Source of the DNA: Halarcobacter sp.
Lineage (GTDB): Bacteria > Campylobacterota > Campylobacteria > Campylobacterales > Arcobacteraceae
Direction: 5' to 3'
Length of the DNA: 64,000 bases
Assembly: GCA_048571215.1 (NCBI GenBank)
Contig: CP182352.1
Span: forward strand, 3,520,001 to 3,584,000
Shown here: in pieces, positions 31,475-64,000 of the stretch
How the letters are laid out: the number at the start of each line of letters is the position of its first letter
Numbering within the stretch: the stretch's first letter is position 1
Translations under genes and position numbers: made by a program
The notes under the pieces: generated by a model
Told to the model about the DNA's origin: nothing
Seen by the model: the letters and a program-made list of their open reading frames with translations, nothing else
Database searches by the model: none

Positions 31475-32806
31475 ATGAAAAGAGTTAAGTTTTTACTGAT
31501 AACAATTTTATGTGTATTTACTGTAGGCTGTGCTGATAAGGGTGAAAAACTTCTTACTGAAATAAAGCCAATGGATAGAGAAAATATAATTCAAAAATCT
31601 ACAATTCATGATGCAGTTAGAATAAATGATTTAAAGTTAGTTGATTATTTCATAAAAAGTGGTACAGATATTAATACAAAAGATAAATTTGGTTATACCC
31701 CTTTACATCTTGCTGCAAGATTTAATCACCTAGATATCGCAAAACTACTGATAAAAAATGGTGCAGATATAAACACACAAGATAAATATTTTGATACTCC
31801 ACTTATAGACTCAACAAGAAATGGTTATTCTGCAATGTCTGAATTACTTATTTGCAATGGTGCTAAAAGAGATATGGTAGATAAATATAAAATGACCCCT
31901 TCTGATTATGCATTAAGAGCAAATGATACAAGATTATCAAAGCTTTTAAAACTTAAAGACCTAAGTGGATATTGTCAAAATAAGATAAAAAAAGAGAAAA
32001 AAATTGAAGTTGAGAAAGATAATAACTCAAATGAAAATGGTACTTCGATAAATATTGATGATCATGCAATCATAAATCAAAGTAAACCCCTAATTTGTGG
32101 TGATATTATTGACCCTACGGTTCTTCAAATTCAAGTTTCACTTGATGAAGGGAAAACTGTATATGATGCAAATTTAGATAATGAAAACAAAAGATGGTGT
32201 GCAAAAATACCTACTAAGCTTGAAGCAGGTGATTATAATATCGCTGCAATATCTATAAACAAATTTAATAAAATGAGTAGAGTAGATGATGATTTTAAAA
32301 TCGAGTTTTCTTCTAAACTTTTTGATTCTTTGAAAAATGAGTTTAAAGATGATTTTAAAAAATGGAATTTAGTATTATTAGAAGATAATAATATTTTAAG
32401 ATTCAAAAACCCTTCATCTATGTTTTCAAGGGGACGAGATAATATAAGTGAAAAATATCAAAAGATATTTAATGACTTTTTCCCAAGATATATAAAGATT
32501 ATAGAAAAACATAAAAATGAGATTAAATCTATTTTTGTTGAGGGACATACCTCTTCAAGATATAGAACTGCAAAAACAAAAGAGGAAAAGTTTGAAAAAA
32601 ATAGAATACTTTCTCAAAAAAGAGCAAATGAAGTTTTATCATTTTTAAAAAATATTAATGATTCAAGGGTGCACGAAAATTTAGGCTTAATAGATGAACT
32701 TTTCACAGCAAAGGGGATGTCTTCATCACAATTAATTTATAATGAAGATGGAAGTGAAAATATTGAAGCTTCAAGAAGAGTTGAATTTAAAATAGAATTA
32801 AAATAG
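31475..32806 (+). CDS. Lipoprotein with ankyrin repeats, Ig-like domain and OmpA/MotB-like C-terminal domain
   Basis: Lipobox TVGC; GYTPLHLAA ankyrin; VEGHTSS, LSQKRA, SRRVEFKI. Confidence 0.85.
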   Translation: MKRVKFLLITILCVFTVGCADKGEKLLTEIKPMDRENIIQKSTIHDAVRINDLKLVDYFIKSGTDINTKDKFGYTPLHLAARFNHLDIAKLLIKNGADINTQDKYFDTPLIDSTRNGYSAMSELLICNGAKRDMVDKYKMTPSDYALRANDTRLSKLLKLKDLSGYCQNKIKKEKKIEVEKDNNSNENGTSINIDDHAIINQSKPLICGDIIDPTVLQIQVSLDEGKTVYDANLDNENKRWCAKIPTKLEAGDYNIAAISINKFNKMSRVDDDFKIEFSSKLFDSLKNEFKDDFKKWNLVLLEDNNILRFKNPSSMFSRGRDNISEKYQKIFNDFFPRYIKIIEKHKNEIKSIFVEGHTSSRYRTAKTKEEKFEKNRILSQKRANEVLSFLKNINDSRVHENLGLIDELFTAKGMSSSQLIYNEDGSENIEASRRVEFKIELK

Positions 32807-32821
32807 ATAAGGTCTTATTAT

Positions 32822-35800
32822 ATGGGAAAAGAGGTAGGGTACATAAAAGAGATTATTTTAAAAGTAAGGGAATCCCTATCTTTTGGAAGCACTTTTTCAA
32901 TATCAAATCAAGAACAATTGGCTTATAATCCAAAAATATCTCAAGTTTATATAACTTTATTTCAAGAGGGATTAAAGCCAATACGTTGGGGTTCAAGAAA
33001 AAAAACACTTGAAGAGTCAATTCAAAGAATTATTTTTAAGCTTAAAACTAATTCTAATTTTTATAATTTTAATATAAGTGAAAATACAAAATGTAGAATT
33101 TTGTTTGAGATGGTTACTAAAGAGTATCCTTGTAATATTAGAAATTTAACTACAATGAATATGGATTCGCCAAATAGATTTGAATCAGGAGTAAATGGTT
33201 TAAAGTATAAATATAATGCACAAACAAGATTTTTTATGCCAACTGATGGATATACAAAATCGATTATGAGTGTAAATCAGCTTTTGAATTATTTATCAAA
33301 ACAGTGTGGGATATCAAAAAAAACAAATAAGATTAGTGAACGGGTTCATTTAATGAGAAGAGAGCCAATTGAGTACACTTTTATAGAATCTATAGCCTTT
33401 ATAACTTATGGTGACGAAGTGTTAAAACTTGAAAGAGGCTATCCTTTACCTATTGATTTTAATAAAGATATAATTTATGACAAGATGATGAAAAGTGTTG
33501 ATTGGTTAATAAAAAATATGAATAATGATGGTAGTTTTTTATACTATTATGATCCATATAAAGACACAATTGTAGATGATATGCATCCTAAGATGATAAA
33601 CCCTTTATATAACAATATATTAAGACATAGTGGAGGAACAATCTCTTTATTAAGAGCTTATGAATTAAGTGATAATAAAATTTATTTACAAAAAGCAAAA
33701 GAGTCTATAGAGTTTTTAATAACTACATTTAAAGAACATCAATATAATAATCAGTATGCTTGTTTCCCATTTTTTAATAAAAAATCAAAATTAGGTGGTG
33801 CAGGGATTGGTTTAGTAGCAATGATGCACTATTATATGCATACAAAAGATGAAAGTTATAGAAAATATTTAGATGGTCTTGTAAGACATATTTTAAGTAG
33901 AGTTGATGAAAGTGGAGAGCTAATTGGTTATTATATTCATCCCCAATTTAATGAGGGAAAACCTTTAATAAATCCAAGTGATGAAGTTAAGAAAAATTTA
34001 TTTTCTTTCTATTATCCTGGGGAAGCACTTTTAGGTCTTGCTTTATATTATCTTTATATTGATAACATTGATGAAGAGTTGAAGAGTGATATAAAAGAAA
34101 AGAGTGAAAAAGCCTTAGACTTTTTAGTTGATATTAGACCTATAAAATATGATTATATGTTTGATACACTACCCGCTGATGCTTGGCTTATGCAAGCGAT
34201 TGAAGAGTGGGTTAAAGTTGATGGTTTAAAAAAACAAAGCTATATTGATTTTGTTTTTAATGATACTAAGCAGATGTTTGAACATATGTATAAAGAAGAG
34301 AACACTTTAGCAACAAATAAAGACTATATAGGTGGATTTTATTATGAATATGGTGATCATGTTTATCATGATGCATCGAGATGTGAAGGGGTTGTTAGCG
34401 CCTACTATTTAGCAAAATATTTAAAAGATGAAAATAAAGCTTCTTGGATAATGGAAAATATGATCTTAAGTGCAAAGGGTTTAATGAAAACATTTCATGA
34501 TGAAAAATCTGTTTATGCCCATATAAATCCAGAAAAAGCGCTTCATAGTTTTAGATTTAAACTCACAAGACAGTGGGTTAGGGTTGATTCAGTTCAACAC
34601 GCTTCATGTTTTTTTGCTAGATTAATCCCTGTTTTTGATGACAAAAAAAAATTAGATAATAATATATTAAATAAATATGAGATTGTAGATACTATTGATA
34701 AAGCAGGGTATAGTACCGTGTATCTAGTAAAAGACAAGTCATCAAAGCTTTTTGCTATGAAGAAAATAGAACAAACCAGATATTTAAGATTAATAGAAAA
34801 TGAGATTAAATTTTTAAGAGTTTTAAATGAATTTAACAGTTTAAAATTTATTGAAGTTATAAAAAATGGTGAAGAGCTTTATTTAATATTTGATTATGCA
34901 GAAGCTGGAAATTTAAAAAAACATGTTGAAAAAAATGCAGTTTTATCAGATGAAGAAACTTTTGAGTATTTGAAGCAGATGTTAGAAGTTTTGAATTTTA
35001 TTAATCAAAAAGGGATTTTGCATTTAGATTTGAAACCTGCAAATACCTTAATTTATAATAAAAAGTTTATTTTGGCTGATTGGGGTAATGCGGAAAAAAC
35101 AAGAGTATCAAAAAGTGTACATCTAAAAGGAAATCCAATCTATATTGCTCCAGAGTTTTATTGGGGGGAAAGAACTATCTCCTCAGAGATTTATTCTTTA
35201 GGTTGCTCTTTATATTTTTTATTAACAGGTAAACATATTTACAGTTTACGAAATAGATATTCATTACTTCAAAAGATATATTCAAGTTTATATTTTCATG
35301 CAGATTTATCTGAAATAAAATCAAATAAGATGAAATATATTTTGGGTAGAATGTTAGAAAAAGAGCCTCAAAAAAGAATCGGTTTAGATGAATTAAATAA
35401 AGAGTTAAAAAAAGATGAAAGTGCTTTTGAAGATTTTTTATATATAAAATATAAAAATGAACAAGTAGATTTTTCAGATGAGGAAAAACTTTATGATAAA
35501 ATGTTAAAAGATAATATTCCTTTTTTATTTAATGAAAAAGGCAGATTGTTTATAAAACAAGGTGAATTTCAAAAAGCTTATGAGATGTTTGAAAAAGGTG
35601 CAAAGGCGGGATATGTAAATGCACAATTAAATCTTGCATTGATGCATTATAATAAAAAATATGAGATCCTAGATTTAAAAAAGGCATTTTATTGGATAGA
35701 AAAAGCTTCACAAGTTGAATATGACAAGGCTCAATATTTTATGGGAATATTTTACGAAAATGGTCTATATGTAGATAAAGATTTAGAAAAAGCTATTTTT

Positions 35801-35890
35801 TGGTTTAAAAAATCTGCACGAAATGCATATAGAAAAGCTTATACAAAACTGGATAAGTACAATATTAAATTGGAGGTAAATTTAAAATGA
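32822..35890 (+). CDS. Fusion: AMMECR1-like + alpha/alpha-toroid-like domain + Ser/Thr protein kinase + Sel1 repeats
   Basis: YNNILRHSG, KLGGAG, YYPGEA, VRVDSVQH; kinase FAMKK, HLDLKPAN, DWG, YIAPE; Sel1 AQYFMGIFYENG...KAIFWFKKSA. Confidence 0.75.
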   Translation: MGKEVGYIKEIILKVRESLSFGSTFSISNQEQLAYNPKISQVYITLFQEGLKPIRWGSRKKTLEESIQRIIFKLKTNSNFYNFNISENTKCRILFEMVTKEYPCNIRNLTTMNMDSPNRFESGVNGLKYKYNAQTRFFMPTDGYTKSIMSVNQLLNYLSKQCGISKKTNKISERVHLMRREPIEYTFIESIAFITYGDEVLKLERGYPLPIDFNKDIIYDKMMKSVDWLIKNMNNDGSFLYYYDPYKDTIVDDMHPKMINPLYNNILRHSGGTISLLRAYELSDNKIYLQKAKESIEFLITTFKEHQYNNQYACFPFFNKKSKLGGAGIGLVAMMHYYMHTKDESYRKYLDGLVRHILSRVDESGELIGYYIHPQFNEGKPLINPSDEVKKNLFSFYYPGEALLGLALYYLYIDNIDEELKSDIKEKSEKALDFLVDIRPIKYDYMFDTLPADAWLMQAIEEWVKVDGLKKQSYIDFVFNDTKQMFEHMYKEENTLATNKDYIGGFYYEYGDHVYHDASRCEGVVSAYYLAKYLKDENKASWIMENMILSAKGLMKTFHDEKSVYAHINPEKALHSFRFKLTRQWVRVDSVQHASCFFARLIPVFDDKKKLDNNILNKYEIVDTIDKAGYSTVYLVKDKSSKLFAMKKIEQTRYLRLIENEIKFLRVLNEFNSLKFIEVIKNGEELYLIFDYAEAGNLKKHVEKNAVLSDEETFEYLKQMLEVLNFINQKGILHLDLKPANTLIYNKKFILADWGNAEKTRVSKSVHLKGNPIYIAPEFYWGERTISSEIYSLGCSLYFLLTGKHIYSLRNRYSLLQKIYSSLYFHADLSEIKSNKMKYILGRMLEKEPQKRIGLDELNKELKKDESAFEDFLYIKYKNEQVDFSDEEKLYDKMLKDNIPFLFNEKGRLFIKQGEFQKAYEMFEKGAKAGYVNAQLNLALMHYNKKYEILDLKKAFYWIEKASQVEYDKAQYFMGIFYENGLYVDKDLEKAIFWFKKSARNAYRKAYTKLDKYNIKLEVNLK

Positions 35891-36852
35891 AAACTTTTTT
35901 TTTAATTCTATTATTAACTATTTCTTTAAATGCAGGATGGAAAACACAAAGGGAAAATCTTGATAAGGTTTATATTTTAGGAGATTTTAGAGTTTTTTAT
36001 ACTTTAAAAGGAAAGGATGCCCTTCCTAGAAAAAATAGAGTGGATTTAAATAAAAACTCTATTCCTGATTATGTAGAAAATATTGCACAAAGATTAAATG
36101 TAACAAAAGAACTTTATACAAAAATATTGGGGTTTCAAGATCCTCTAAAATCAAAAAGATATAGAGGGGTAAAATATATTGATATACATATTTTAAATTC
36201 AAAACATAGTTCATCAGGAGATGCTGTTGTAACTTTTAACTATAAAATTTTAGATAAAGAAGATGAAGTTATAAGTATGAAAATAAGAAACAATCTTGAT
36301 AAAGATACTTTAACTCCTTCCCATGAATATTTTCACTTGCTTCAAAATAGTTATAGTATGTTTAAAAATAGATGGTATACAGAAGGTACTGCAAGATGGT
36401 CTGAAAGAGTATTTAAAAAAGGTACTGGTAAAAGAGGAATATTACCCCAAAATTCAAGATCTTTAGATGTATTATTAGATATGACATATGATGCAAAGGG
36501 ATTTTGGAGAAAATTAGCTTACCTTTGTGATACAAATAATGGGAGTTTTGTAAATAGTCTAAATCTTAAAACAGATGTACCAAATTATCCAAACTTGATA
36601 GAAGACAGAAGGATTTATGGTTATGAATTTATAAGAGTCTTTTTAGAAAATTTGGACAAACAAGATAATATTGTTTCTAAAAAAAGAGGTTATGGTGAGT
36701 TTGATTGGAGTGAAAAAAATCAAAAATATAATGAAGACAACAACAAGTATATTTTAAAAGCTGTAGTTGATACTATAAATACAGTTTGTCCAAAAACAAA
36801 TCAAGAGATAAACAATTTTAAAATTGTTGCAAAAGATTATATTAGAAGATAA
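35887..36852 (+). CDS. Secreted zinc metallopeptidase-like protein
   Basis: Signal peptide (SLNA-); HEYFH followed by WYTEGTA (gluzincin-like). Confidence 0.7.
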   Translation: MKTFFLILLLTISLNAGWKTQRENLDKVYILGDFRVFYTLKGKDALPRKNRVDLNKNSIPDYVENIAQRLNVTKELYTKILGFQDPLKSKRYRGVKYIDIHILNSKHSSSGDAVVTFNYKILDKEDEVISMKIRNNLDKDTLTPSHEYFHLLQNSYSMFKNRWYTEGTARWSERVFKKGTGKRGILPQNSRSLDVLLDMTYDAKGFWRKLAYLCDTNNGSFVNSLNLKTDVPNYPNLIEDRRIYGYEFIRVFLENLDKQDNIVSKKRGYGEFDWSEKNQKYNEDNNKYILKAVVDTINTVCPKTNQEINNFKIVAKDYIRR

Positions 36853-39254
36853 TGGAAAATAAATTACTATTTTCATTAAAAGAGATTGAATCTATTACAG
36901 GTGGTAAATGGGTTAATTTTGATGAAAAATTAGTTATAGATGAGTTTGTCCATCTACTACCACATATAAAAGACGGGGATCTTTTTATTGTACATTATGC
37001 AAATTGGTATAATAAAAAAACAGATAATGAAAAGGATATTCCAAGAGCTATTAAAAAAGGTGCTCGTGCTTTAATGGTTCAAAAACAAACTGATATATCA
37101 AATTTATCTATGCCTGTTTTAGTAGTAGATGACACTTATTATGCCTTAAAAAATTTAGCTTTGTATGCATCCGAAAAAGCAAGTTCAAAACGAGTTGTTA
37201 TCACAGGAAGTTATGGAAAAACAGGTTTCAAAAATCACTTATATCATTTGATAAAAGATAAAACAAAAGTATTTGCAAGACTTAGTAGTTCAAATAGAGT
37301 TGCTTCAACCTATGGAAACTTAGCTTCCCTAAAAAAAGATACAGAAGTTTTATTAGTTGAAATCCCTATTAGTACTAGAAATAAAACACAAAGACGAGCA
37401 GGTTATGTTAGACCTGATATTTGTGTTATAACTTCAATTGGGCATGAACATATAGAAAGACATGCTAGTGTAAATAATATTATAAAAAAGAAGTGTTCTA
37501 TTGCTGGAACTTTGCCAGAAGAAGGAAAAATAATTGTACCTAGTGATGGAGAATATAGTGATCTTATAAAAAAAGAGTTAAGAAAATATGAAGATATAGA
37601 GGTTTTAACTTTTGGATATAAAGATAATTGTAATGCTCAGTTATTAAGTGTATGGTACGAGAATTATAGATATAAGGTGATTGCTAGAATTGAAGAGGAA
37701 CTTGTGCAATATGAAGTTCCTTTTGTAGATGATCATGCACCTCTTAGTTCAATATGTGAATTATTGTGTATAAAACACTTAGGTTTTGATATATATGAAT
37801 GTGCAAAAAATTATAAAAATATTAAAAATTTTAGAAGTAGTGGGAATTTATATAAATTAGAATATAAAGAAAAAACCTTTTATCTGTATGACCATAGTAG
37901 AAGGGGTGGAGTAGAAGGGTACCGTTCTTTTTTGAAAACAATTAAAAAGATTAATCCTAAGGGAAAAGGAAGAAAAATATTTGTTACTTCTGAGTTTGTA
38001 GATATTCAAGATGGTGAAGAGAAGTTTATAGATAAAAATGAGTTTAAACAATTGATTGAAGAAGCATCAATTGATCAGTTTTATACAGTAGAAAATTTTA
38101 AAGCTGTTCATGAAGATTTAATAAGTGATAAAAAAAAGTGGATACAACACTCTTTAAAAGTTGAAGATTTAAGAGAAAATTTTCTTAATAATATTCATGA
38201 GGGAGATGTTATTTGTATAAAAGCTATATTTGAAAGCTCTCTTCAGCTACTTAGTAAAGATATTTTACACAATTCAGAAATATTAAACTCTCAGCAAGAA
38301 TATAATACAAAGGTTGATTTATTAAAAAACTGTAGGATAATTGATACAAAATATATGGAAAGATTTTATTCTATAATGGACAATGCAAAAAAAGAGAATT
38401 GGGTTAATTATTTTCCTTTTTTATATACCTTCTCTGCCTCAAAAAGTAGAAAAATTTTACTAAATTTTGAAGATGATGTAATGAGTGTTTATTTTTTAAG
38501 ACATCTAAACAGTAGAAGAAGAGAACCTTTTTTACAATTGTATTTTATACCTATACCTTTTAGTTCTCAAAAGTTAAAAAAAGCATTAACCTTAGTTAAA
38601 GAGTTTAATCATGCATCTTCAAATACAATTCTTTGGTGTGATGCAGAGGATATAAAAAGAGTTAGAGAAAATAAAGAATTTGATAAGGTAATAAAATTTA
38701 GATATAAGGAGTCTGAGTTTATATATTCTCCACAAAATTATGAAACTTTATCAGGTAGTAAATACAAATATTTAAGACGACAAATAGGATGGATAAATGC
38801 TTTAAAAGATGTAAAAGTAACCTCTTATAAAAAAGAGCATTTAAAAGACTGTTTATCTTTATATGATGATTGGAAAAAAACTCAAGGTCTTAAATATGAA
38901 TCTATAGAAGATGAATCTTATACAAAACTTTGTCTTTATCATAGTTTTGATTTTCCTAAAGAGATATTAGATGGAATAGTGGTCTTAATAGATAATCAGG
39001 TTAAATCTTTTGCTTTTTATGGAAAAATCACAAATGAAATATCAAATATGTTTATTGCAAAAAGTGACCATAGTATAAGAGGTTTGCAAGTTTTTACAAA
39101 TTATCAAATATTATTAAGATTAGAAGATTACAAATATGCAAATGCTTCAGGAGGAGATTTAAGTAAAGGTTTATACGAATCCAAAAAAAAATTCAGACCT
39201 TCAAAAATGCATAAAATTTATAAAGGGGCTGTTAAATTTAGTTTTTTTAGATAA
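36852..39254 (+). CDS. Divergent MurF-like ligase fused to a DUF2156/MprF-C-like aminoacyltransferase domain
   Basis: ITGSYGKTG, RPDICVITSIGHEH; C-terminal EFIY...LSGSKYKYLR, IRGL, GLYESKKKFRP. Confidence 0.75.
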   Translation: MENKLLFSLKEIESITGGKWVNFDEKLVIDEFVHLLPHIKDGDLFIVHYANWYNKKTDNEKDIPRAIKKGARALMVQKQTDISNLSMPVLVVDDTYYALKNLALYASEKASSKRVVITGSYGKTGFKNHLYHLIKDKTKVFARLSSSNRVASTYGNLASLKKDTEVLLVEIPISTRNKTQRRAGYVRPDICVITSIGHEHIERHASVNNIIKKKCSIAGTLPEEGKIIVPSDGEYSDLIKKELRKYEDIEVLTFGYKDNCNAQLLSVWYENYRYKVIARIEEELVQYEVPFVDDHAPLSSICELLCIKHLGFDIYECAKNYKNIKNFRSSGNLYKLEYKEKTFYLYDHSRRGGVEGYRSFLKTIKKINPKGKGRKIFVTSEFVDIQDGEEKFIDKNEFKQLIEEASIDQFYTVENFKAVHEDLISDKKKWIQHSLKVEDLRENFLNNIHEGDVICIKAIFESSLQLLSKDILHNSEILNSQQEYNTKVDLLKNCRIIDTKYMERFYSIMDNAKKENWVNYFPFLYTFSASKSRKILLNFEDDVMSVYFLRHLNSRRREPFLQLYFIPIPFSSQKLKKALTLVKEFNHASSNTILWCDAEDIKRVRENKEFDKVIKFRYKESEFIYSPQNYETLSGSKYKYLRRQIGWINALKDVKVTSYKKEHLKDCLSLYDDWKKTQGLKYESIEDESYTKLCLYHSFDFPKEILDGIVVLIDNQVKSFAFYGKITNEISNMFIAKSDHSIRGLQVFTNYQILLRLEDYKYANASGGDLSKGLYESKKKFRPSKMHKIYKGAVKFSFFR

Positions 39255-39282
39255 TATTTAAATATTAAATAAGAGGATATGT

Positions 39283-40731: not shown

Positions 40732-40749
40732 AATAGATGTGGAATTAAG

Positions 40750-41505
40750 ATGATTAATATAATAACAAACCCTTTTTTAAAAAAAAGATATTTTTCCGAC
40801 TTTTCAAATGAATATATTATAAAAAGTAATACTAGTTTGAGTGGAGCAATTTTATTAATGTTTAGTCTAACAGTAGTTTCATTTGTATTCTTTTGGATAT
40901 TTTCAAATGAACTACTTATAAACAGTACTCCTATAGCTATAGAAAATGTAAAGAATTTTTCTTTTGTAAGTGGAGTGATCTCTTTTATTATAGCTTTTTT
41001 TGCATATTATAAGCCAGGATTATCTCCAATCTTAGCACCCTTATATGCAGTTTTTTCGGGTATTTTTATCTCAGGTCTGAGTTTTGCTGCAGAACAAAAG
41101 TTTCCAGGTATTGCAATGCTAACTGCTGAAGTTACTTTAACAACTTTTATTATTGTTTATATTGGATATAAGATTGGTATTATTAAAGTAACACAAAAAT
41201 TTAAATCTATAGTTTATTCACTTATTGGGATTATATCATTTTTGTATTTATTGAGTTTCATCTTAATGCTTTTTAATACCACTATCCCTTTGATTCACGA
41301 AGCAGGTATAGGTGGAGTAATATGGACTTTTTTTATTATGGCTACAGCTTCATTTCATCTTGCAATAGATATAGATAAGGTAGAAAAATCTAATACTAAC
41401 AAAGGGTATGAAAACTGGAACTTAGCTTTAGGATTAATGGTATCTTTGATATGGCTTTATTTTTCAACTTTAAGATTTTTATCTCGAATTAAGAGTCTAA
41501 AATAG
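40750..41505 (+). CDS. Bax inhibitor-1/YccA-family membrane protein
   Basis: ~7 TMs; SPILAPLYA, LGLMVSLIWLY. Confidence 0.8.
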   Translation: MINIITNPFLKKRYFSDFSNEYIIKSNTSLSGAILLMFSLTVVSFVFFWIFSNELLINSTPIAIENVKNFSFVSGVISFIIAFFAYYKPGLSPILAPLYAVFSGIFISGLSFAAEQKFPGIAMLTAEVTLTTFIIVYIGYKIGIIKVTQKFKSIVYSLIGIISFLYLLSFILMLFNTTIPLIHEAGIGGVIWTFFIMATASFHLAIDIDKVEKSNTNKGYENWNLALGLMVSLIWLYFSTLRFLSRIKSLK

Positions 41506-53400: not shown

Positions 53401-56400
53401 ACTGATACGGACACAGACACTGATACCGACACAGACACTGATACTGATACTGATACGGACACAGACACTGATACCGACACAGACACGGATACCGATACTG
53501 ATACGGACACAGACACTGATACGGACACAGACACTGATACAGACACAGACACGGATACAGATACGGACACAGACTCTGACTCAGATAGTGATAGTGACTC
53601 AGACACAGACAGTGATACAGATTCAGACACAGATTCGGATAGCGACTCAGATACAGACTCTGATTCAGACAGTGATACCGATTCGGATTCAGACTCTGAC
53701 ACCGATAGTGATAGTGACTCAGACACTGATTCAGATACCGACAGTGACAGTGATTCAGACACAGACTCTGACTCAGACAGTGATACGGATTCTGATAGTG
53801 ACTCAGATTCTGATTCGGATAGTGATTCAGACTCAGATAGTGACTCTGATTCAGATACTGACACGGATACGGACACAGATACCGACACAGACACTGATAC
53901 TGATACTGATACGGACACAGACACTGATACCGACACAGACACTGATACTGATACTGATACGGACACAGACACTGATACCGACACAGACACGGATACCGAT
54001 ACTGATACGGACACAGACACTGATACGGACACAGACACTGATACAGACACAGACACGGATACAGATACGGACACAGACTCTGACTCAGATAGTGATAGTG
54101 ACTCAGACACAGACAGTGATACAGATTCAGACACAGATTCGGATAGCGACTCAGATACAGACTCTGATTCAGACAGTGATACCGATTCGGATTCAGACTC
54201 TGACACCGATAGTGATAGTGACTCAGACACTGATTCAGATACCGACAGTGATAGTGATTCAGACACAGACTCTGACTCAGACAGTGATACGGATTCTGAT
54301 AGTGACTCAGATTCTGATTCGGATAGTGATTCAGACTCAGATAGTGACTCTGATTCAGATACTGACACGGATACGGACACAGATACCGACACAGACACTG
54401 ATACTGATACGGACACAGATACTGATACTGATACGGACACAGACACTGATACCGACACAGACACTGATACCGACACAGACACTGATACCGACACAGACAC
54501 GGATACCGATACTGATACGGACACAGATACGGACACAGACACTGATACAGACACAGACACTGACACGGATACAGATACAGATACAGATACGGACACAGAC
54601 TCTGACTCAGATAGCGATACCGATAGTGATAGTGACTCAGACACAGACAGTGATACAGATTCAGACACAGATTCGGATAGCGACTCAGATACAGACTCTG
54701 ATTCAGACAGTGATACCGATTCGGATTCAGACTCTGACACCGATAGTGATAGTGACTCAGACACTGATTCAGATACCGACAGTGACAGTGATTCAGACAC
54801 AGACTCTGACTCAGACAGTGATACGGATTCTGATAGTGACTCAGATTCTGATTCGGATAGTGATTCAGACTCAGATAGTGACTCTGATTCAGATACTGAC
54901 ACGGATACGGACACAGATACCGACACAGACACTGATACTGATACTGATACTGATACGGACACAGACACTGATACCGACACAGACACTGATACTGATACTG
55001 ATACGGACACAGACACTGATACCGACACAGACACGGATACCGATACTGATACGGACACAGACACTGATACGGACACAGACACTGATACAGACACAGACAC
55101 GGATACAGATACGGACACAGACTCTGACTCAGATAGTGATAGTGACTCAGACACAGACAGTGATACAGATTCAGACACAGATTCGGATAGCGACTCAGAT
55201 ACAGACTCTGATTCAGACAGTGATACCGATTCGGATTCAGACTCTGACACCGATAGTGATAGTGACTCAGACACTGATTCAGATACCGACAGTGATAGTG
55301 ATTCAGACACAGACTCTGACTCAGACAGTGATACGGATTCTGATAGTGACTCAGATTCTGATTCGGATAGTGATTCAGACTCAGATAGTGACTCTGATTC
55401 AGATACTGACACGGATACGGACACAGATACCGACACAGACACTGATACTGATACGGACACAGATACTGATACTGATACGGACACAGACACTGATACCGAC
55501 ACAGACACTGATACCGACACAGACACTGATACGGACACAGACACTGATACCGACACAGACACGGATACCGATACTGATACGGACACAGATACGGACACAG
55601 ACACTGATACAGACACAGACACTGACACGGATACAGATACAGATACGGACACAGACTCTGACTCAGATAGCGATACCGATAGTGATAGTGACTCAGACAC
55701 AGACAGTGATACAGATTCAGACACAGATTCGGATAGCGACTCAGATACAGACTCTGATTCAGACAGTGATACCGATTCGGATTCAGACTCTGACACCGAT
55801 AGTGATAGTGACTCAGACACTGATTCAGATACCGACAGTGATAGTGATTCAGACACAGACTCTGACTCAGACAGTGATACGGATTCTGATAGTGACTCAG
55901 ATTCTGATTCGGATAGTGATTCAGACTCAGATAGTGACTCTGATTCAGATACTGACACGGATACGGACACAGATACCGACACAGACACTGATACTGATAC
56001 GGACACAGACACTGATACCGACACAGACACTGATACTGATACTGATACGGACACAGACACTGATACCGACACAGACACGGATACCGATACTGATACGGAC
56101 ACAGACACTGATACGGACACAGACACTGATACAGACACAGACACGGATACAGATACGGACACAGACTCTGACTCAGATAGTGATAGTGACTCAGACACAG
56201 ACAGTGATACAGATTCAGACACAGATTCGGATAGCGACTCAGATACAGACTCTGATTCAGACAGTGATACCGATTCGGATTCAGACTCTGACACCGATAG
56301 TGATAGTGACTCAGACACTGATTCAGATACCGACAGTGACAGTGATTCAGACACAGACTCTGACTCAGACAGTGATACGGATTCTGATACCGATTCAGAT

Positions 56401-58101
56401 TCAGATAGTGACACCGATTCTGATAGCGATAGTGACACAGATTCAGATTGTGATACAGATGTTGATGCAGATAAACCAATTGCAGATATTGAAGTTGAGT
56501 ATGAAAAAACAGTTACCGTAAATGAAGTTTGTTCTACTTCACAAAATCTAGGTAATTTAGCTGCTTATTTAGATGGTATGAATAATGTAAATGCAAATGA
56601 AGTTGTTGATTTAGCAAAAGATCAAAATGGTAACCCACAACAAGATCAATACAACTTAGAATTGACTTCATTTGGAGATGGAGATTTAGCATTATATGAT
56701 AATGAATCTAATCAAAATGAAACTAGAGATATCAATGATATTGATTTAAATGATGTTACACCATTTGATCCATCAAATGCAGAAGTAGTAAATAACACCA
56801 TAAATCATACATACAATATGACATCAAATGAAGTTATTTTTGAAGGTGATATTGTTCAAAATGGTAATGTAATAGGAACATCAGACAATGATGTGATTAT
56901 TGTAAAAGGTGAGGTTCAAGGTGGTTCAAATGTTAATGCAGGTGCTGGAAATGACCTTATTGCAATAGTAGGAAATATTGGAGAAAATCAACCAGCAATT
57001 GATGGGGATAGTGGTACAGACATACTATATCTAAGTAAACCTGCATCTAATTATGAGTTTTTAGATATCCACTTCCATGACAATTTAGATGGACATATTT
57101 TAGATAAAGAGACTCAAAGTGTATTAACATTTAATAACATAGAAGGAATTGCCTTTGGTGATGGTTCTGGGGTAAATTGTAAAGTAAATACATCAACAAG
57201 CTATCAATACAATGTAAGTATAAGTGCTGCATTAACTGATATTGATGGAAGTGAAACTTTATCTGTAGCAATATCTGGAGTGCCAAATGGTGCTACACTA
57301 TCAAGTGATACCTATACATTAATTGATAATGGAAATGGAAATTGGACAGTTGAAGTACCAAATGGAGATGTATCTATAGTTGATGATATTACTATGAATG
57401 TTCCATCAGATATAGGAGATTTTAACCTTGAAATAACAGCAAGAGCAACTGAAATCAATGATAATGATGGTACTGATTATGCAGAAACAACAGATAGTGA
57501 TTTTGTAACTGATGATATCGATCCAGATACAGAAATCAATAAATTTGACTTAGTAGGAAATGTAACTACTGGTTCAGGAGATGATACAATTAATGTGTCA
57601 GATGATATATTCTTAGCTAATGTTGATACTGGAGCAGGAGATGATACAATCAATGTAGGAGATGATATAGGATTATTTACTTCAATAGATACCGGAGCAG
57701 GAGATGATACAATTAATATTGGTGACAATATTAGTTATTCAGCTCAAATTGATATGGGTGATGGTATTGATACCCTAAGTTTAGATGATGATATTGATTT
57801 ATCTGATATAGCAAAAAATGTTGATAATGTTGAAATAATTGATTTGGATAATGATGAAGACCAAGATCTAGAAATAGATTTAGATTCAATTATCGATTTA
57901 ACTGATGATGATAATGATTTAGTTGTTATTGGTGATAATGGTGACAAAATTGACTTTAATGATTCTGGTTGGGAAAAAGGCGATAGCACAAAAACTGTTG
58001 ATGGACAAGATGGAGAGTTTACTGAATACACAAATACAAACAATCCAAATGTATCAATTTTAATTGATAATGACATTGACGTAGATGATGATGACATTTA
58101 A
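50410..58101 (+). CDS. Giant Asp-Thr/Asp-Ser repeat surface protein, putative T1SS substrate (LapA-like)
   Basis: No Sec signal; AAAAG at aa 147-151; ~1830-aa TD/SD tract; DIDGSETL Ig-like module; RTX-like G(A/S)GDDTIN repeats; acidic C-terminus; T1SS genes downstream. Confidence 0.88.
50953..56448 (+). repeat. 6-bp (Thr/Ser-Asp) coding tandem repeat with ~500-bp higher-order units
   Basis: (ACN GAY)218 at 50953-52260, then 9 copies of an SD-rich block starting 52261, 52657, 53161, 53659, 54163, 54697, 55207, 55753, 56251. Confidence 0.97.
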
Positions 58102-58153: not shown

Positions 58154-58966
58154 TTGACTTTAGATGAGTTAAAAAAAGAGAATGAAACTCTTAAAAATGA
58201 AATTGTACTGTTGAATAGTAAAATATCAGAGAATCTAGAACAAAATAGAATCAATGATAAGATGCTATTTCAACAAAGTAAAATGGCTTCAATGGGTGAA
58301 ATGATTGGAAATATTGCACACCAATGGAGACAACCTCTTATGGAGCTTTCTTCTATTTTTATGTTAATTCAAACTAAAATTGAGTTTGAAGGAGATATAG
58401 AAAATAGTGAACTTATTGATTTTATTAAAAAATCTGACGAAATTACCCATTACATGTCTCAGACAATAGATGATTTTAGAAACTTCTTTGCAAAAGAAAA
58501 AATTAAAGTTGATTATAAAATATCAAACCAAGTAAGTTTAGCTGTAAGTATGTTAAATATGTGTTTAAAACAGCATGGAATAAAAGTAGAAATAGTTGTT
58601 CTTAAAAATCCAAAACTTTATGGTTTTAAAAATGAATATTCGCAAGTTCTTATTAATATTTTAAATAATTGTAAGGATGCTTTGATTCAAAGAAATATAA
58701 AGAATCCCAAAATCAAGATTATAATTAATAAAAAAGATGATAAATCAGTTTTAACAATTGAAGATAATGCTAAAGGAATAAATATAGAACCTATAGAAAA
58801 AATATTTGAACCATTTTTTACCCATGACAAAAAAAATGGAACAGGAATAGGTTTATTCATGTCAAAACTAATAATTGAAAATAATATGAATGGAAGATTA
58901 TTTGTTGAAAATATTAACAATGGTGCAAAATTTACTATAACAGTACCCTTTAGTCATAAGTTATAA
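58154..58966 (+). CDS. Cytoplasmic histidine kinase with no sensor domain
   Basis: Short coiled coil then IAHQWRQPL, EDNAKGI, FEPFFT, GTGIGLF; no TM. Confidence 0.85.
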   Translation: MTLDELKKENETLKNEIVLLNSKISENLEQNRINDKMLFQQSKMASMGEMIGNIAHQWRQPLMELSSIFMLIQTKIEFEGDIENSELIDFIKKSDEITHYMSQTIDDFRNFFAKEKIKVDYKISNQVSLAVSMLNMCLKQHGIKVEIVVLKNPKLYGFKNEYSQVLINILNNCKDALIQRNIKNPKIKIIINKKDDKSVLTIEDNAKGINIEPIEKIFEPFFTHDKKNGTGIGLFMSKLIIENNMNGRLFVENINNGAKFTITVPFSHKL

Positions 58967-59642
58967 GTTGGTATCCTACACTAGAAATATTTTTTATGGA
59001 ATCTTTTCCAATTTTATTTCTTAATTTATTCATTAAAGATTTAAATGCAGATTCTGTAGAGCTATAACTATCTTCCCAGACATGACATTGAATCTCCTCT
59101 TTAGAAACAACTCTATTTTTATTTTCATACAAGTATTCAAGTAATAGTATCTCTTTTGCTGTAATGTCTATTATTTTAGTATCTATTGATAATATCTTTT
59201 TATTAAAATTATATTCTATTTTATTATTGAACTTTATTATAAAATCATTATTCTCAAAGTATTCATTTCCTGCATTTAGTAATGCTTTTTTAAGTTTATT
59301 AAAATCAATGGGTTTTGTTAAATAATCCACAAGTTTTAATCTTGCTGCTTTTAATAAAAACTTAGTATCGGTATGTGCCGTTAAGAGTATCACTGGTATA
59401 GTGATTTTTTCTTTTCTTAAATATTCTACAAAATCTAAACCTGTTTTTCCAGGCATACTTATATCACTTAATATCACATGCACACAATTAGATGAAAAAA
59501 CCTTTAAGGCATCATCTACACATGATACAGAGTAGACATTTTTAAATATATAACCTAATATTTTAGTTATATTTTCTCTTATTTGATTTTCATCTTCTAG
59601 ATACAAAATATTTAATTGTTTTAAAGAATTATCTTTTACCAT
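58950..59642 (-). CDS. OmpR-family response regulator
   Basis: LYLEDE, LSDISMP, TKP, SSVGYQL. Confidence 0.9.
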   Translation of the reverse strand: MVKDNSLKQLNILYLEDENQIRENITKILGYIFKNVYSVSCVDDALKVFSSNCVHVILSDISMPGKTGLDFVEYLRKEKITIPVILLTAHTDTKFLLKAARLKLVDYLTKPIDFNKLKKALLNAGNEYFENNDFIIKFNNKIEYNFNKKILSIDTKIIDITAKEILLLEYLYENKNRVVSKEEIQCHVWEDSYSSTESAFKSLMNKLRNKIGKDSIKNISSVGYQLITYD

Positions 59643-59751: not shown

Positions 59752-61593
59752 ATGTTTTTACAATCAAACAATATGGATAAAACTATGAAAACAATAATCG
59801 AAAGAATTCTCATTTTAAGTCTCTTTGTAACATATGCTAGTTCAACTTCTTTAAAAGATTCAGTTATAAGTACTTTAGGTAAAAACCCTGATGTATTATC
59901 TGAAAAATTAAATAGGGATGCTTATCAAAAGTATGTTGATGAAGAAAAAGGTGATTATTATCCAACACTAGATTTTCAAGGATATGTTGAAAAATCTAGA
60001 ACAAGAAATGATAGAGATAATGTTGCTACAGATCCAAGCAGTGCAAAAAAAGATGGATGGCATGCTGCATTAACTTTTGAACAGATCATTTATGATGGTG
60101 GACAAACACCAAGTCAAGTAGAACAGTATAAACATACTTATCTATCAAATAAGTACAGAAGTTTAATTAGAGTTGATGAAATTGTAAGGTCAACTATTGA
60201 TAATTATCTTAATGCAGTTAAATATCAAGAGTTAATTGATCTTTCTCAATTAAATCTACAGGTACATGAAGATTATTTAGTGATTGCACAAGAGAAAGAA
60301 AATATAAGTGGAGAAATCTTAGAGACTTATCAAGTAAACTCTAAAAAACATTATGTGATAGACAGATATTTGGAACAAAAAATAAATGAAGATGAGGCAA
60401 GAAATATTTTTGCAGAAAAGTCAGGTATTGAAAATCCAGGAAATATTTGTAGACCTACAATTAATGAAGCTTTTATACCTAGTACTTTAGAAGAAGCAAT
60501 AGAAAAAGCAGTTAGAAATAGTCCAAAAATATTAAGAGCTATTGAAGATATTAAGGAGCAAAGGGAAAATGTAGTACAAGCTAATGCTACATATCTACCT
60601 ACTTTAAGATTCCAATGGGTAGGAAGTTTAGATGATGATTTATCAAATGCAGAAAATGGTAGACAAGATATATCTAGATTTAGAATTATTATGGATTGGA
60701 ATCTATTTGAAGGTGGAAAAAATAAAATTGCAAAAGAAAGAGAAGTTCTTTTTTTACAAGAAAAACAAAAAATTCTTGATACAACAGTAAATCAAGTTAT
60801 TCAAGAGGTTACCACAAGTTATAAAAAGTATTTTTCTTTTAAAGAAAAAATAGAAAATTATAAAAAATATGTTAAAGATAACTATTATATTAAAGAGGTA
60901 TATTTTAAACAATTAACAGATGGTACTAGAACTTTTATTGATATACTAGATGCAGAATCAGAATATTATAGATCATCATTAGATTTAATAGATTTTGAAT
61001 ATCAGTTATATGGATATTATTATGATATTTTAAATCATAGTGGTCTATTGAGTACAAGCATTTTGATGTCTGAAAATCAAGTATGTAAAGAATTCAAATT
61101 ATCAAAATATGAAAGTAGATTTAAACAAAAAGTAAAAGATAATAATAGTGAATTAAATGACTTAGATTTACTCCAAGAGCTTGGTCAAGCACAAAGTAAA
61201 ACAAAAACTGAGGAAGGAAATACAAAAGAAGTAGATATGGAGATTGATAATTTAATCAATGGTACCTCTGTAGGGGAGAACAATGAAACTAAAAATCCAG
61301 ATGAAAATGCAGTAAAAAATTTACCTACAGGAAAGTATACTATTAAGCTTGCGACTTTTGATCAAAACTATGATATTAATTCATTTATAGAAAAAAATAA
61401 ACTAAATCCAGATGATGTATATGCATACAGTACTAACAATAATATAAATGTTATTTATGGGCACTTTAATAAGCTTGGTGATGCTAAAGCACTATTAAGC
61501 AGTTTAGATAAAAGTTTAATTAATAGTAATGTATATATTGATATTCTTGAAAAACATAGAAAACTTTATCAAAAATATAAAACAAATAATTAG
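59752..61593 (+). CDS. TolC/LapE-family outer-membrane channel with C-terminal SPOR-like extension (start may be 59773 or 59785)
   Basis: YYPTLD, YLPTL, WNLFEGG, GTRTFIDILDAESE; tail KYTIKLATF...VIYGHF. Confidence 0.9.
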   Translation: MFLQSNNMDKTMKTIIERILILSLFVTYASSTSLKDSVISTLGKNPDVLSEKLNRDAYQKYVDEEKGDYYPTLDFQGYVEKSRTRNDRDNVATDPSSAKKDGWHAALTFEQIIYDGGQTPSQVEQYKHTYLSNKYRSLIRVDEIVRSTIDNYLNAVKYQELIDLSQLNLQVHEDYLVIAQEKENISGEILETYQVNSKKHYVIDRYLEQKINEDEARNIFAEKSGIENPGNICRPTINEAFIPSTLEEAIEKAVRNSPKILRAIEDIKEQRENVVQANATYLPTLRFQWVGSLDDDLSNAENGRQDISRFRIIMDWNLFEGGKNKIAKEREVLFLQEKQKILDTTVNQVIQEVTTSYKKYFSFKEKIENYKKYVKDNYYIKEVYFKQLTDGTRTFIDILDAESEYYRSSLDLIDFEYQLYGYYYDILNHSGLLSTSILMSENQVCKEFKLSKYESRFKQKVKDNNSELNDLDLLQELGQAQSKTKTEEGNTKEVDMEIDNLINGTSVGENNETKNPDENAVKNLPTGKYTIKLATFDQNYDINSFIEKNKLNPDDVYAYSTNNNINVIYGHFNKLGDAKALLSSLDKSLINSNVYIDILEKHRKLYQKYKTNN

Positions 61594-61604: not shown

Positions 61605-63734
61605 ATGGAAGAATTAGAAAAAACAGTTAATAGAAAAGTAGATACTCTTTTAGAGTCTCTATTTTTTATTGCTAAATATTATCAAAGAGCGACTTCTAAA
61701 GAGTCATTACTTAATGGCTTGTCAATTTTTGGAGATGTAATGGATGTTGATAATTTTATTCAAGCATCAAAAAAGGTTGCATTAATCTCAAAATTTGTTA
61801 AAAGAGATAATATTGAAGATATAAATAAATTAACATTTCCAGCTGTAATTTTCACAACAAAATACGACTCTATGATTTTACTTGACTACGATGAAGAAGG
61901 GAATAGTGCAAATTTGATTATTCCTGAATTGAGTTTAGGTGAAACTACTATGCCATTAGATGAACTTAATTCACTTTATACAGGCAGGGTAATTATTATT
62001 AAGCCTGCATATAATTTTGAAAATCGTTCTTCAAGAGAAGTATCTATCTTAAATCCAAAAAAATGGTTTTGGGATACAATGAAGAAAAGTAAAGAGTTCT
62101 ACGCAAGAGTTATTGTTGCAACTATTTTTATCAATATCTTTGTGATAGCTTTACCTTTATTTATAATGAATGTCTATGATAGAATTTTACCAAACAATGC
62201 TATTGAATCCTTATGGGCATTAGCAATTGGTGTATTTGTTGTAATGATATTTGATTTTATTCTTAAAATTATTAGGTCGTATTACATTGGTAAAGCTTCA
62301 AAAAAAGCAGATATCATTATGTCAAATAAAATATTTGATCATCTTTTAAATTTAAGGCTTGATTCTAGACCTTCATCTACTGGTATGTTTGTTAATAGAT
62401 TACAATCTTTTGAATCTATAAAAGAGTTTTTTACAACAGCAACAATTACTACTTTAGTGGATATTCCATTTTTATTTATTTTTGTAGCAATTATTTTTTA
62501 TATTGGTGGACCTTTAGGATGGATTCCTGTAATTACAATAATTATAGCTCTAATTAGTTCTTTTTTTATGCAAAAGATAATTAAAAAAAATGTTACAAAT
62601 ACAGTTAATGAGGAACAATTAAAACAAACAACATTAAATGAAACTGTAACAGGATTAGAAATAATAAAAAGTGTTCGCGGTCAAAATAGAATGAAAACAC
62701 ACTGGGATAAATCATTAAGTCAAACAGCATATTATGGAGAAAAAACACAACTTTTCTCACAAGTTGCAAGTGGCCTTACCGATTTTATAACAAAGTTTTC
62801 AAATGTAGTTATTATTGTATTTGGAGTTTTTTTAGCTTCAAGTGGTGATATGACGATGGGTGCAATCGTAGCTTCAATGATGTTAAACAGAAGAGCAGTT
62901 GCTCCTGCATCAAAGATTGTGAATCTAGTTATAAAATATGATAGAGCAATGATTGCATTAAAAAATATTGATGACATTATGAGTTTAGATGTTGAAAAAG
63001 ATCATAAAGTATATTTAAGTAGACCCCATTTAATTGGAGACATAGAGTTTCAAGATGTAAGTTTTTCTTATAAAAAACAAAATTATGAAGTATTAAAAAA
63101 TATAAATTTAAAGATAAATCAAGGTGAAAAAGTAGCGATTTTAGGAAAAATTGGTTCAGGAAAGTCAACACTAATTAAGATGATTCAAAATCTTTATGTT
63201 CCAACAAAAGGTTCAATTTTAATTGATAATACAGATGTTAGACAAATTGACCCAGTAGATTTAAGAAAGGCTATAGGTGTTGTTCCTCAAGAATCATTTT
63301 TATTTATGGGAAGTGTAAAAGATAATATTACAATAGGAGATCCTTTTGCAACAGATGAGGAGATATTAAAAGCTTCAAAAATTGCTGGAGTTCATGATTT
63401 CTTAGGTAAACATGAAGCGGGTTATGATTTTCTTGTAGGTGAAAGAGGAGAAGGATTAAGTGGTGGTGAAATTCAATCTATTACTTTAGCAAGAGCACTT
63501 GTAAGTAATCCAGATTTTATGATATTTGATGAGCCTACAAACTCAATGGATAAACAAACAGAAAGAGATTTTTTAAAAAAATTAAAACTTATTTTAGATA
63601 AACAAACTGTGATTATTGTTACCCATAAGTTATCTTTATTGTCTTTGGTTGATAGGGTAATAGTTTTAGATAATGGTAAAATAGTAGCTGATGGTCCAAA
63701 AGAAAAAGTATTTTCTAAAGCGAATAAAGAGTAG
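61605..63734 (+). CDS. Type I secretion ABC transporter (LapB/HlyB-type, C39-like N-terminus)
   Basis: PLFIMNVYDRILPN, GKIGSGKST, LSGGEIQ, IFDEPT. Confidence 0.95.
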   Translation: MEELEKTVNRKVDTLLESLFFIAKYYQRATSKESLLNGLSIFGDVMDVDNFIQASKKVALISKFVKRDNIEDINKLTFPAVIFTTKYDSMILLDYDEEGNSANLIIPELSLGETTMPLDELNSLYTGRVIIIKPAYNFENRSSREVSILNPKKWFWDTMKKSKEFYARVIVATIFINIFVIALPLFIMNVYDRILPNNAIESLWALAIGVFVVMIFDFILKIIRSYYIGKASKKADIIMSNKIFDHLLNLRLDSRPSSTGMFVNRLQSFESIKEFFTTATITTLVDIPFLFIFVAIIFYIGGPLGWIPVITIIIALISSFFMQKIIKKNVTNTVNEEQLKQTTLNETVTGLEIIKSVRGQNRMKTHWDKSLSQTAYYGEKTQLFSQVASGLTDFITKFSNVVIIVFGVFLASSGDMTMGAIVASMMLNRRAVAPASKIVNLVIKYDRAMIALKNIDDIMSLDVEKDHKVYLSRPHLIGDIEFQDVSFSYKKQNYEVLKNINLKINQGEKVAILGKIGSGKSTLIKMIQNLYVPTKGSILIDNTDVRQIDPVDLRKAIGVVPQESFLFMGSVKDNITIGDPFATDEEILKASKIAGVHDFLGKHEAGYDFLVGERGEGLSGGEIQSITLARALVSNPDFMIFDEPTNSMDKQTERDFLKKLKLILDKQTVIIVTHKLSLLSLVDRVIVLDNGKIVADGPKEKVFSKANKE

Positions 63735-63736
63735 TT

Positions 63737-64000
63737 ATGAAAAAGAATAATGATATAAATTTTGTGCATAACCTTTATGGTCAAGCAAATGAAAAAGCTT
63801 CATCAAAAATAGATTTTTTATTTATATTTATTTTATGCTTTTTAGTAGCTGCCATTGTTTGGTCAAGTATAGCTCAAATAGATGAATTAGCAAGGGGTCA
63901 AGGTAAAGTAATCCCTTCAAGTAAAATCCAAACTATTCAATCTTTAGATGGAGGATTAGTTGAAGAGATTTTAGTTAAATCTGGTGATCAAGTAAAAAAA
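63737..64000 (+). CDS. HlyD/LapC-family T1SS membrane fusion protein, 3'-truncated by window edge
   Basis: TM then IDELARGQGKVIPSSKIQTIQSLDGGLVEEILVKSGDQV. Confidence 0.93.
   Translation, partial: MKKNNDINFVHNLYGQANEKASSKIDFLFIFILCFLVAAIVWSSIAQIDELARGQGKVIPSSKIQTIQSLDGGLVEEILVKSGDQVKK

Follow-up and report, generated by a model that had tools for sequence, protein, structure and literature searches.

Surface proteins in which aspartate alternates with a second residue (Asp-X) have been described alongside enzymes that decorate them. The Pls-GtfC/GtfD system of S. aureus (and SesJ-GtfA/GtfB) sets an Asp-X surface protein beside a GtfC-family gene and a hydroxyl-modifying enzyme (PMC5230774, PMC7029136). 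Pls glycosylation is abolished when gtfD is lost; without gtfC it is weak in COL and absent in 1061. GtfC alone gives no periodic acid-Schiff (PAS) signal and is not among the CAZy-predicted glycosyltransferases, and N-acetylhexosamine (HexNAc) on Ser is the sole modification published for a GtfC system (PMC5230774). SD-repeat MSCRAMMs glycosylated by SdgA/SdgB have an Asp-alternating stalk modified on its hydroxyls (PMC7029136). Paracoccus denitrificans BapA and the Acinetobacter beta-type biofilm-associated proteins (BAPs) are giant proteins exported by a type I secretion system (T1SS) and carry 500-900 Asp-X dipeptides; the available parts of the two papers name no modifying enzymes, BapA migrates high on SDS-PAGE, and its authors do not exclude a modification (PMC5588039, PMC4647330). 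Asp-X adhesins and the GtfC/GtfA-type neighbours are on record in the full-text literature (which includes PMC2034487, PMC12472024, PMC8360574 and PMC7029136).

Here we describe a locus in a 64,000-nucleotide stretch of a Halarcobacter sp. genome (contig CP182352.1, positions 3,520,001 to 3,584,000; 'the window', whose first letter is position 1 in the coordinates below unless a locus number precedes them). The genome is closed, with 28.5% GC. An island starts ~2.3 kb past three tRNA genes, and within it twelve + strand open reading frames (ORFs; 31475-50336, spacing -47 to 77 bp) lead to a repeat gene that begins 73 bp downstream. The locus is real, conserved and modular. In our reading, which we give a probability of roughly two in three, it would serve as a tailoring line that works in the cytoplasm on the Asp-Thr/Asp-Ser protein next to it, before the T1SS exports this protein as a capsule-like surface brush. 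That the cluster modifies this scaffold in some way is probable, and more so than any specific chemistry.

The scaffold (50410..58101, +; 2563 aa) comprises a 182-aa N-terminal domain, 917 Asp-X dipeptides and a C-terminal RTX-like region. In aa 183-2016 (nt 50956-56457), 917 Asp alternate strictly with 591 Thr, 324 Ser, 1 Ala and 1 Cys; units 1-217 are pure Asp-Thr (DT) and the remainder is organised as a tandem block of ~85 dipeptides. The original prediction, made from the sequence of the window, had twelve co-oriented, closely spaced genes leading into a protein of ~916 Asp and ~915 Thr/Ser, and both the gene count and the composition (917 Asp, 915 Thr/Ser) bear it out. The tract is unique within the 3.61-Mb genome and is written in a synonymous mix of 18 different codon pairs. 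This mix, together with similar tracts in 7 other genomes of the family, rules out an assembly artefact as the origin of the repeat, a rejection that covers its existence but not the copy number of the ~85-dipeptide block. Three long overlapping ORFs across the repeat are frame shadows. In relatives, the N and C domains are 55-72% and 40-70% identical, respectively. The Gly/Asp nonapeptides at the C terminus are what we take to be RTX-like, and the AAAAG motif at the end of the N domain presumably resembles the LapA cleavage site. One relative (G103, L015) carries the scaffold gene as two ORFs, of 3534 and 657 aa, with ~700 bp between them.

A complete T1SS lies downstream: a TolC-family outer membrane channel (59752..61593, +; Pfam, NCBIfam), an LssB/LapB-type ABC transporter (61605..63734, +) that scores 823 bits with TIGR03375 against a cut-off of 693, as an ABC protein with a C39-like domain, and the start of the membrane fusion protein gene hlyD (63737..64000, +), whose 447-aa product continues past the window end (L001:3738-5081). 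The expectation of a T1SS after the repeat gene holds, except that a histidine kinase (58154..58966, +; Pfam), conserved in position among relatives, and a response regulator (58950..59642, -; Pfam) intervene at 58154-59642, and most of hlyD lies beyond the window. In line with the original prediction, the 38 + 3 window ORFs that were scanned with Pfam matched no family of glycosyltransferases, flippases, LicD or choline kinases. A promoter scan gave no excess (134 sites versus 142 in shuffles); terminator-like sites numbered 8 versus 3.8 in shuffles, none of them in the interval from capA to the scaffold gene, an uninformative outcome. One RNA run, with a 0.11 share of words, gave no evidence of expression.

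The most constant member of the system is a protein that the original prediction did not mention, the N-terminal 610 aa of the ORF at 32822-35890 (the core protein; 32822..34660, +). This part has no Pfam match, and the domain has no sequence match in the PDB; used as a query, the window protein matched nothing in the plasmid collection, and the domain matched only unnamed Atlas clusters. An AlphaFold2 model of residues 1-613 (mean predicted local distance difference test, pLDDT, 91.5) has an N-terminal domain that Foldseek matches to 1zq7 (M. mazei Q8PZK8; E 2.4e-5), which we take to be an AMMECR1 family member, followed by an (alpha/alpha)6 barrel. The best match of the barrel among (alpha/alpha)6 enzymes has Z 28.8, a root-mean-square deviation of 3.2 over 336 aligned residues and 12% identity; AGE/cellobiose epimerase and GH76/88/105 folds are 8-13% identical, many families lying within a few Z units of one another. 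Enzymes of this fold carry out epimerisation or isomerisation on sugars. The polar motifs N-x-x-RH, KLG, YxGE and RxDxxxH are invariant over 21 divergent rows, which suggests chemistry rather than mere chaperoning. The core protein may present the Asp-X tract or, by analogy, prime it through an epimerisation or isomerisation beside the carboxylate. Modelling the core protein together with 40 aa of the repeat gave an uninformative score of 0.00.

By sequence comparison, the core protein belongs to the GtfC family (S. aureus SACOL0051). Of the gtfC primers printed in PMC5230774, two map inside the core gene of locus L088, with 0 and 3 mismatches, so that membership is anchored on this relative, identified by primers, rather than on the GtfC sequence itself. 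The window protein and the L088 protein are 23% identical over 560 columns (E 1e-9), and profiles of the window and GtfC groups align with a probability of 100% (E 3e-63, ~480 columns). The core genes of S. epidermidis, S. simulans and S. haemolyticus each encode 538 aa. GtfC genetics is the only experimental anchor of the system, and it concerns this 23% identical relative.

We surveyed 184 genomes of the family Arcobacteraceae, counting Asp-X tracts of at least 8 units. The Fic gene occurs in 8, an Asp-X tract in 8 and the core gene in 10; the core gene is present in 8/8 repeat genomes, and the two core-gene genomes without a repeat are fragmented assemblies (~290 and ~490 contigs). In six of the seven relatives with Fic the scaffold gene directly follows the cluster, and in the seventh the contig breaks off inside the cluster. 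The link between cluster and repeat is not a chance one. Because these genomes are kin, the pattern is that of one lineage. Within it, the genes between core and scaffold vary in nearly every genome: most relatives have Fic and a Mur ligase in one fused protein, and the donor arm comes as a fused class I pyridoxal phosphate (PLP) enzyme, a split class I enzyme, a class V enzyme or an aminoethylphosphonate pathway (the last in G053). In the closed genome G088 the Mur/Fic cluster is gone, the core gene is kept and the repeat has only 17 units, compared with 347-1240 units in those relatives that have the cluster and whose tract is fully assembled. In place of the cluster, between core gene and scaffold, lies a 195-aa AvrB/AvrC-like ORF (L090:1788-2375), and the scaffold, its repeat shrunk, has gained ~3000 aa of other sequence.

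The core gene neighbours surface proteins with DT, Asp-Ser (DS), Asp-Ala (DA) or Asp-Gly (DG) repeats across distant bacteria. A profile of the Mur proteins gave 56 loci, of which 32 are close relatives and the 24 most distant (L061-L084), taken as unrelated, served as controls; an Asp-X run of at least 5 units is present in 10/32 close loci against 0/24 controls and 1/180 host tiles. The core gene was found in 15/15 searched genomes of the close Mur relatives, in one of them only as a contig-end fragment. An Asp-X run adjoins the core gene in 16 of the 18 plasmid-collection records examined (out of 37 and 55 matches). In the metagenome set (best 80 of 253 loci), a run of at least 5 units occurs in 27/80 loci, or 20/41 among those of at least 10 kb, to be compared with the control loci and host tiles just given. 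Tracts beside the core gene include DA 349 and 252 in Agrobacterium, DG 55 in Thioclava, DS >900 in K. aerogenes and DA 145 in Listeria, and runs also adjoin it in Rhizobium, Nitratireductor, Sulfitobacter, two enterococci and six staphylococci. The Listeria pair is, judging by gene order, probably lmo1799/lmo1798. Lmo1799 has 226 Ala-Asp repeats (PMC8687577). In Listeria, Enterococcus, G088 and G762 the core gene is the sole member of the cluster beside the repeat; elsewhere it is fused to Mur (Agrobacterium, Sulfitobacter), to three ATP-grasps (Agrobacterium Tul002), to a family 4 glycosyltransferase (GT4; K. aerogenes) or to Fic and Mur (G100, L048, L055). Export routes differ among loci (T1SS, sortase, TPS-domain proteins), and some metagenome core proteins have N-terminal hydrophobic segments. 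Twelve of the 13 loci with a nucleotidyltransferase (NTP transferase) also carry Fic. The Fic/LicC arm of the original prediction is optional and does not define the system.

To compare enzyme type with the second residue of the repeat, we tabulated 50 hand-picked loci, 48 of them with a repeat, by BLAST and, for neighbours in ten Ala/Gly-rich loci, by Pfam. A hydroxyl-directed enzyme is visible in 19/32 Ser/Thr-rich loci (at least 35% Ser/Thr at X), namely Fic in 11, APH-type enzymes in 5, GT4 in 2 and a sulfotransferase in 1, compared with 1/16 Ala/Gly-rich loci (<30%; 0 by BLAST, one APH gene by Pfam). In Sulfitobacter, of the latter class, an annotated glycosyltransferase lies ~13 kb away. 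Mur or ATP-grasp ligases accompany both classes, pure DA and DG repeats included. Four unrelated hydroxyl chemistries on the Ser/Thr side and carboxyl-amine ligases on both sides fit Asp as the constant handle. The idea that the enzyme set matches the two side chains of the repeat thus passes on the hydroxyl side, where the enzymes track Ser/Thr content. A DG locus of G291 carries an Asp/Asn beta-hydroxylase gene between repeat gene and core gene (L206:7544-8158).

The domain calls of the original prediction for the cluster stand: three Mur proteins (one with DUF2156/LPG_synthase_C), two ATP-grasps, an AnkX-like Fic, an NTP-transferase/PLP fusion, CapA and a Ser/Thr kinase. Two members of its twelve-gene enzyme set are not enzymes, namely an Ank-OmpA lipoprotein and a BaxI_1 membrane protein. 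The donor for hydroxyl modification would come from the ORF at 45982..47787 (+), a LicC/PntC-like cytidylyltransferase fused to a CobD-like PLP decarboxylase and predicted to supply cytidine diphosphate (CDP)-ethanolamine; LicC-like enzymes make CDP derivatives. Its N domain matches the LicC/PntC-type PDB chains 6pd1 and 1jyk, and the PLP domain is best matched by 6oux (E 2e-51), presumably a serine-phosphate decarboxylase. A short CobD-like ORF with no Pfam match lies at 20972-21916, and it may be degenerate because relatives have a PLP enzyme at the equivalent position. The Fic protein (43311..44261, +; 316 aa) is a predicted CDP-donor phosphotransferase that matches AnkX in the PDB (E 2e-27) and has no ankyrin tail. 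With D21, R23, Y34, R37 and the HPFVDGNIR motif, it has the Fic motif and counterparts of 4/4 of the residues D28, R30, Y41 and R44, of which at least 3 mark an AnkX-type protein (PMC4454073); against NF043028, which models the full-length AnkX effector, it scores 112.6 bits (cut-off 1400) over model positions 7-302 of 938. One AnkX-type protein in PMC4454073 is annotated as a UDP-N-acetylmuramyl pentapeptide synthase and is probably a Fic-Mur fusion like those here.

The three Mur proteins (36852..39254, fused to a DUF2156/LPG_synthase_C domain resembling aminoacyl-tRNA-dependent transferases; 39283..40731; 47819..49270; all +) are MurF-like, 31-34% identical to one another, and score 121-184 bits with the housekeeping MurF model TIGR01143, below its cut-off of 288.6. 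The Mur superfamily signature is present (a GKT P-loop in all three; E172, H202, H206 and K216 invariant in 21 rows), and the proteins are nearer to MurF than to CphA. The ATP-grasp ligases (41583..43286, resembling the C half of cyanophycin synthetase/GshF, and 44268..45947; both +) are 43% identical; the second matches the G domain of cyanophycin synthase (E 2e-21). The CphA1 profile reaches 141 bits (cut-off 850) through the G domain only, and no single chain carries N, G and M domains. In cyanophycin synthetase, the Mur-like domain works on Asp beta-carboxyls, and DUF2156 domains transfer amino acids from aminoacyl-tRNA. The CapA protein (49224..50336, +; Pfam PGA_cap E 3e-51; no signal peptide seen) is a metallophosphoesterase-fold protein and a candidate epimerase or hydrolase. 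It matches the NCBIfam MslH epimerase weakly (E 3e-12, far below cut-off) and structures 8gq9/8gqb, which we take to be MslH; PgsA is reportedly also an epimerase.

From these homologies and the GtfC genetics, we propose that the AMMECR1-barrel protein would engage the Asp-X tract and enable the other enzymes by presentation or by priming of Asp. The PLP domain would decarboxylate phosphoserine, the LicC-like domain would yield CDP-ethanolamine and the AnkX-type Fic would move phosphoethanolamine onto Thr/Ser, an arm that we hold to be reasonably probable. The MurF-like ligases would activate the side-chain carboxyls of Asp and join amino acids or dipeptides to them, with ATP-grasps and DUF2156 supplying or extending these additions and CapA epimerising or trimming; on this arm we would place about even odds. 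The T1SS would finally export the decorated scaffold as a capsule-like brush.

Several observations weigh against a tailoring line of this kind. A heavily branched chain would have to pass the T1SS, and all three window Mur proteins have an altered DSYNA motif and lack the Arg of the MurF GR motif. The 50 tabulated loci were selected by us, many are kin and the counts ignore kinship; 13/32 Ser/Thr-rich loci have no visible hydroxyl enzyme, and the Roseospira DA locus holds an APH gene. Sampling 301, 400 and 251 genomes blindly turned up 24 core-gene loci in 22 new genomes (one genome unscored), and within the fetched flanks a run of at least 5 units occurs in only 4/24, and in 2/4 of the strongest (E<1e-100); at two further loci the gene next door has short DG motifs. 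Either the family of the barrel therefore extends beyond this system, or it acts in trans. Core, Fic, Mur and NTP transferase occur together, with no run seen, in Oceanospirillum G184 (over 41 kb of a 47-kb contig), in Methylococcaceae G186 (over the whole of a 40-kb contig) and in Sulfurimonas G188 (over 69 kb). Core-gene relatives at L154, L157, L163, L167 and L173 lack a repeat, and A. baumannii L176 and Variovorax L180 lack an Asp-X run; an SD-repeat protein has been described at the A. baumannii bap site in strain SDF (PMC4647330). The predicted co-occurrence of enzymes and repeat is near one-to-one in the family and recurs across phyla; most distant relatives of the barrel have no repeat close by, and none was seen at three Fic-Mur clusters.

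We rejected a lanthipeptide-like reading of the kinase and a LanC-like barrel: DA and DG repeats are served by the barrel too, and the kinase is mostly missing. Modification might instead be confined to Thr/Ser, with Fic adding phosphoethanolamine, the Mur, ATP-grasp and DUF2156 enzymes building peptides on that amine or on the donor, and Asp left free for calcium. ATP-grasp and DUF2156 enzymes require an amine acceptor, Fic and Mur are fused in most relatives, and the one modification published for a GtfC system sits on Ser (PMC5230774). We nevertheless consider this unlikely, since Mur/ATP-grasp ligases stand beside near-hydroxyl-free DA/DG repeats without Fic in Agrobacterium, Nitratireductor, Sulfitobacter, Thioclava and L044. 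It is a little less likely still that the surface product of the enzymes is a separate one, a poly-amino-acid akin to poly-gamma-glutamate (PGA) or cyanophycin or else a small molecule, and that they merely share an island with an unmodified adhesin. PGA and cyanophycin synthesis use the folds of CapA, ATP-grasp and Mur proteins, some clusters have no repeat nearby, and gene content is as variable as in capsule loci; but the cluster and window ORFs gave no match to a polymer exporter, a flippase or a membrane synthase of the CapB/CapC type, and in them PGA_cap is the sole cap/pgs component, enzyme type follows the second residue of the repeat, and GtfC acts on the neighbouring repeat protein (PMC5230774).

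The solitary core genes beside repeats in Listeria, Enterococcus, G088 and G762, and the lack of a PAS signal with GtfC alone (PMC5230774), would suit a non-catalytic chaperone for the polyanionic chain, the other genes hitch-hiking or acting on the cell wall. We find this improbable given the invariant polar residues of the core protein, its repeated fusion to differing enzymes and, for the cell wall, another, distant Mur gene elsewhere in the host (C1:2045100-2046038). Least probable is that Fic and the kinase act on other cells, as secreted effectors or in defence: the best Fic match is a Legionella effector and an AvrB-like ORF occupies this site in G088, but the window Fic has no visible ankyrin tail or export signal, and Fic is mostly part of a fusion with Mur and has CDP-donor genes of its own alongside.

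The remaining cluster genes encode three accessory parts and a putative protease. The first (31475..32806, +) encodes an ankyrin, Ig and OmpA-type peptidoglycan-binding lipoprotein (Pfam Ank, Big_13 and OmpA; lipoprotein signal by eye) with a 36% identical paralogue after hlyD (L001:5071-7197), followed by a WG-repeat protein; the two lipoproteins thus flank the locus, an arrangement that most relatives keep. The Ser/Thr kinase with Sel1 repeats (34661..35890, +; Pfam Pkinase E 1.9e-39, Sel1, motifs) is fused to the core protein, a fusion absent in most relatives. A putative HExxH metalloprotease with a signal peptide (35887..36852, +; MXAN_6640-like, NF045524 E 3.3e-15, below cut-off) is a frequent companion that also occurs in Klebsiella, Variovorax, Geobacter and Roseospira loci, and the Bax inhibitor-1-like membrane protein (40750..41505, +; BaxI_1 E 7e-40) is present too in L030, L098 and L208. 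Among other loci, the 42 Mur subfamily proteins scanned (P0041-P0122) have as fusion partners CapA, Fic, kinases, APH, methyltransferases, TTL/YheCD ATP-grasps and a D-Ala-D-Ala carboxypeptidase domain, and a transglutaminase-like gene recurs in L031, L039, L044, L046 and L060. In Sulfitobacter, two stand-alone condensation-domain genes precede the core-Mur fusion (L179:11734-14616) and a polyketide synthase lies past the DA-repeat gene. In L044, LapG- and LapD-like genes (L044:5263-8004) separate the core gene from the DA-repeat/TolC genes and suggest release controlled by cyclic di-GMP. The core-gene relatives of L157 and L212, neither with a repeat, adjoin phosphonate genes, and alphaproteobacterial core genes in L203, L204 and L205 have N-terminal membrane segments, with short DG motifs in the adjacent gene of L203 and L205; genes near these three presumably resemble PEP-CTERM/exosortase sugar transferases.

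If the locus is indeed a tailoring line, it would be a sugar-free relative of Pls-GtfC/GtfD and possibly a new class of protein-borne peptide polymer. Where Pls has the GT4 partner GtfD, the window has no glycosyltransferase family match and carries Fic, CDP-donor supply, Mur, ATP-grasp, DUF2156 and CapA instead; its repeat is Thr-rich, its export route a T1SS rather than a sortase anchor, and its core protein ~23% identical. Likeness to the MSCRAMM systems is confined to the low-complexity repeat, with all matches below cut-off and no SdgA/B-type enzyme in the window. The window ATP-grasps resemble the G domain of CphA1, but the domains lie on separate proteins, the Mur proteins are nearer to MurF and the backbone would be ribosomal. 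Legionella AnkX shares the Fic and CMP-binding region and the four diagnostic residues (PMC4454073), whereas the window Fic has 316 aa and no ankyrin repeats, is encoded with donor-synthesis genes and has a protein of its own cell as proposed target. The original prediction knew of no described system of this composition. No description of Mur, ATP-grasp, CapA or Fic partners of Asp-X adhesins, or of the GtfC fold, was found in the full-text literature, which leaves subscription journals mostly outside and in which the supplements of PMC4647330 and PMC5230774 may bear on novelty; but the system is less isolated than claimed because its core gene is shared with the known Pls-GtfC/GtfD locus.

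More tentatively, and at somewhat below even odds, at least five phyla would use a ribosomal (Asp-X)n chain as template for modular polymer chemistry. The barrel of the GtfC family, for which glucosyltransferase is a frequent mislabel, would prime or present Asp; swappable MurF-like, ATP-grasp and tRNA-dependent ligases would grow peptides on it, possibly with CapA-made D-amino acids; and self-targeting AnkX-type Fic domains would add phospho(no)-amines to Thr/Ser, giving a T1SS-exported peptide capsule that may reflect the ancestral role of AnkX-like enzymes. If true, this would mean that hypervariable surface coats can be made without sugars and that peptide branches on hundreds of Asp residues are a new kind of protein modification, and would supply a native bacterial substrate for AnkX-type Fic domains. 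It would give a testable role to the widespread GtfC/'poly(glycerol-phosphate) alpha-glucosyltransferase' family, whose relative in the window has no glycosyltransferase fold, and the minimal two-gene versions would make the chemistry directly testable on short synthetic peptides. It would also offer a reason for the dedicated neighbours of Asp-Ala, Asp-Gly and Asp-Thr adhesin stalks in Listeria, staphylococci, Agrobacterium and Klebsiella.

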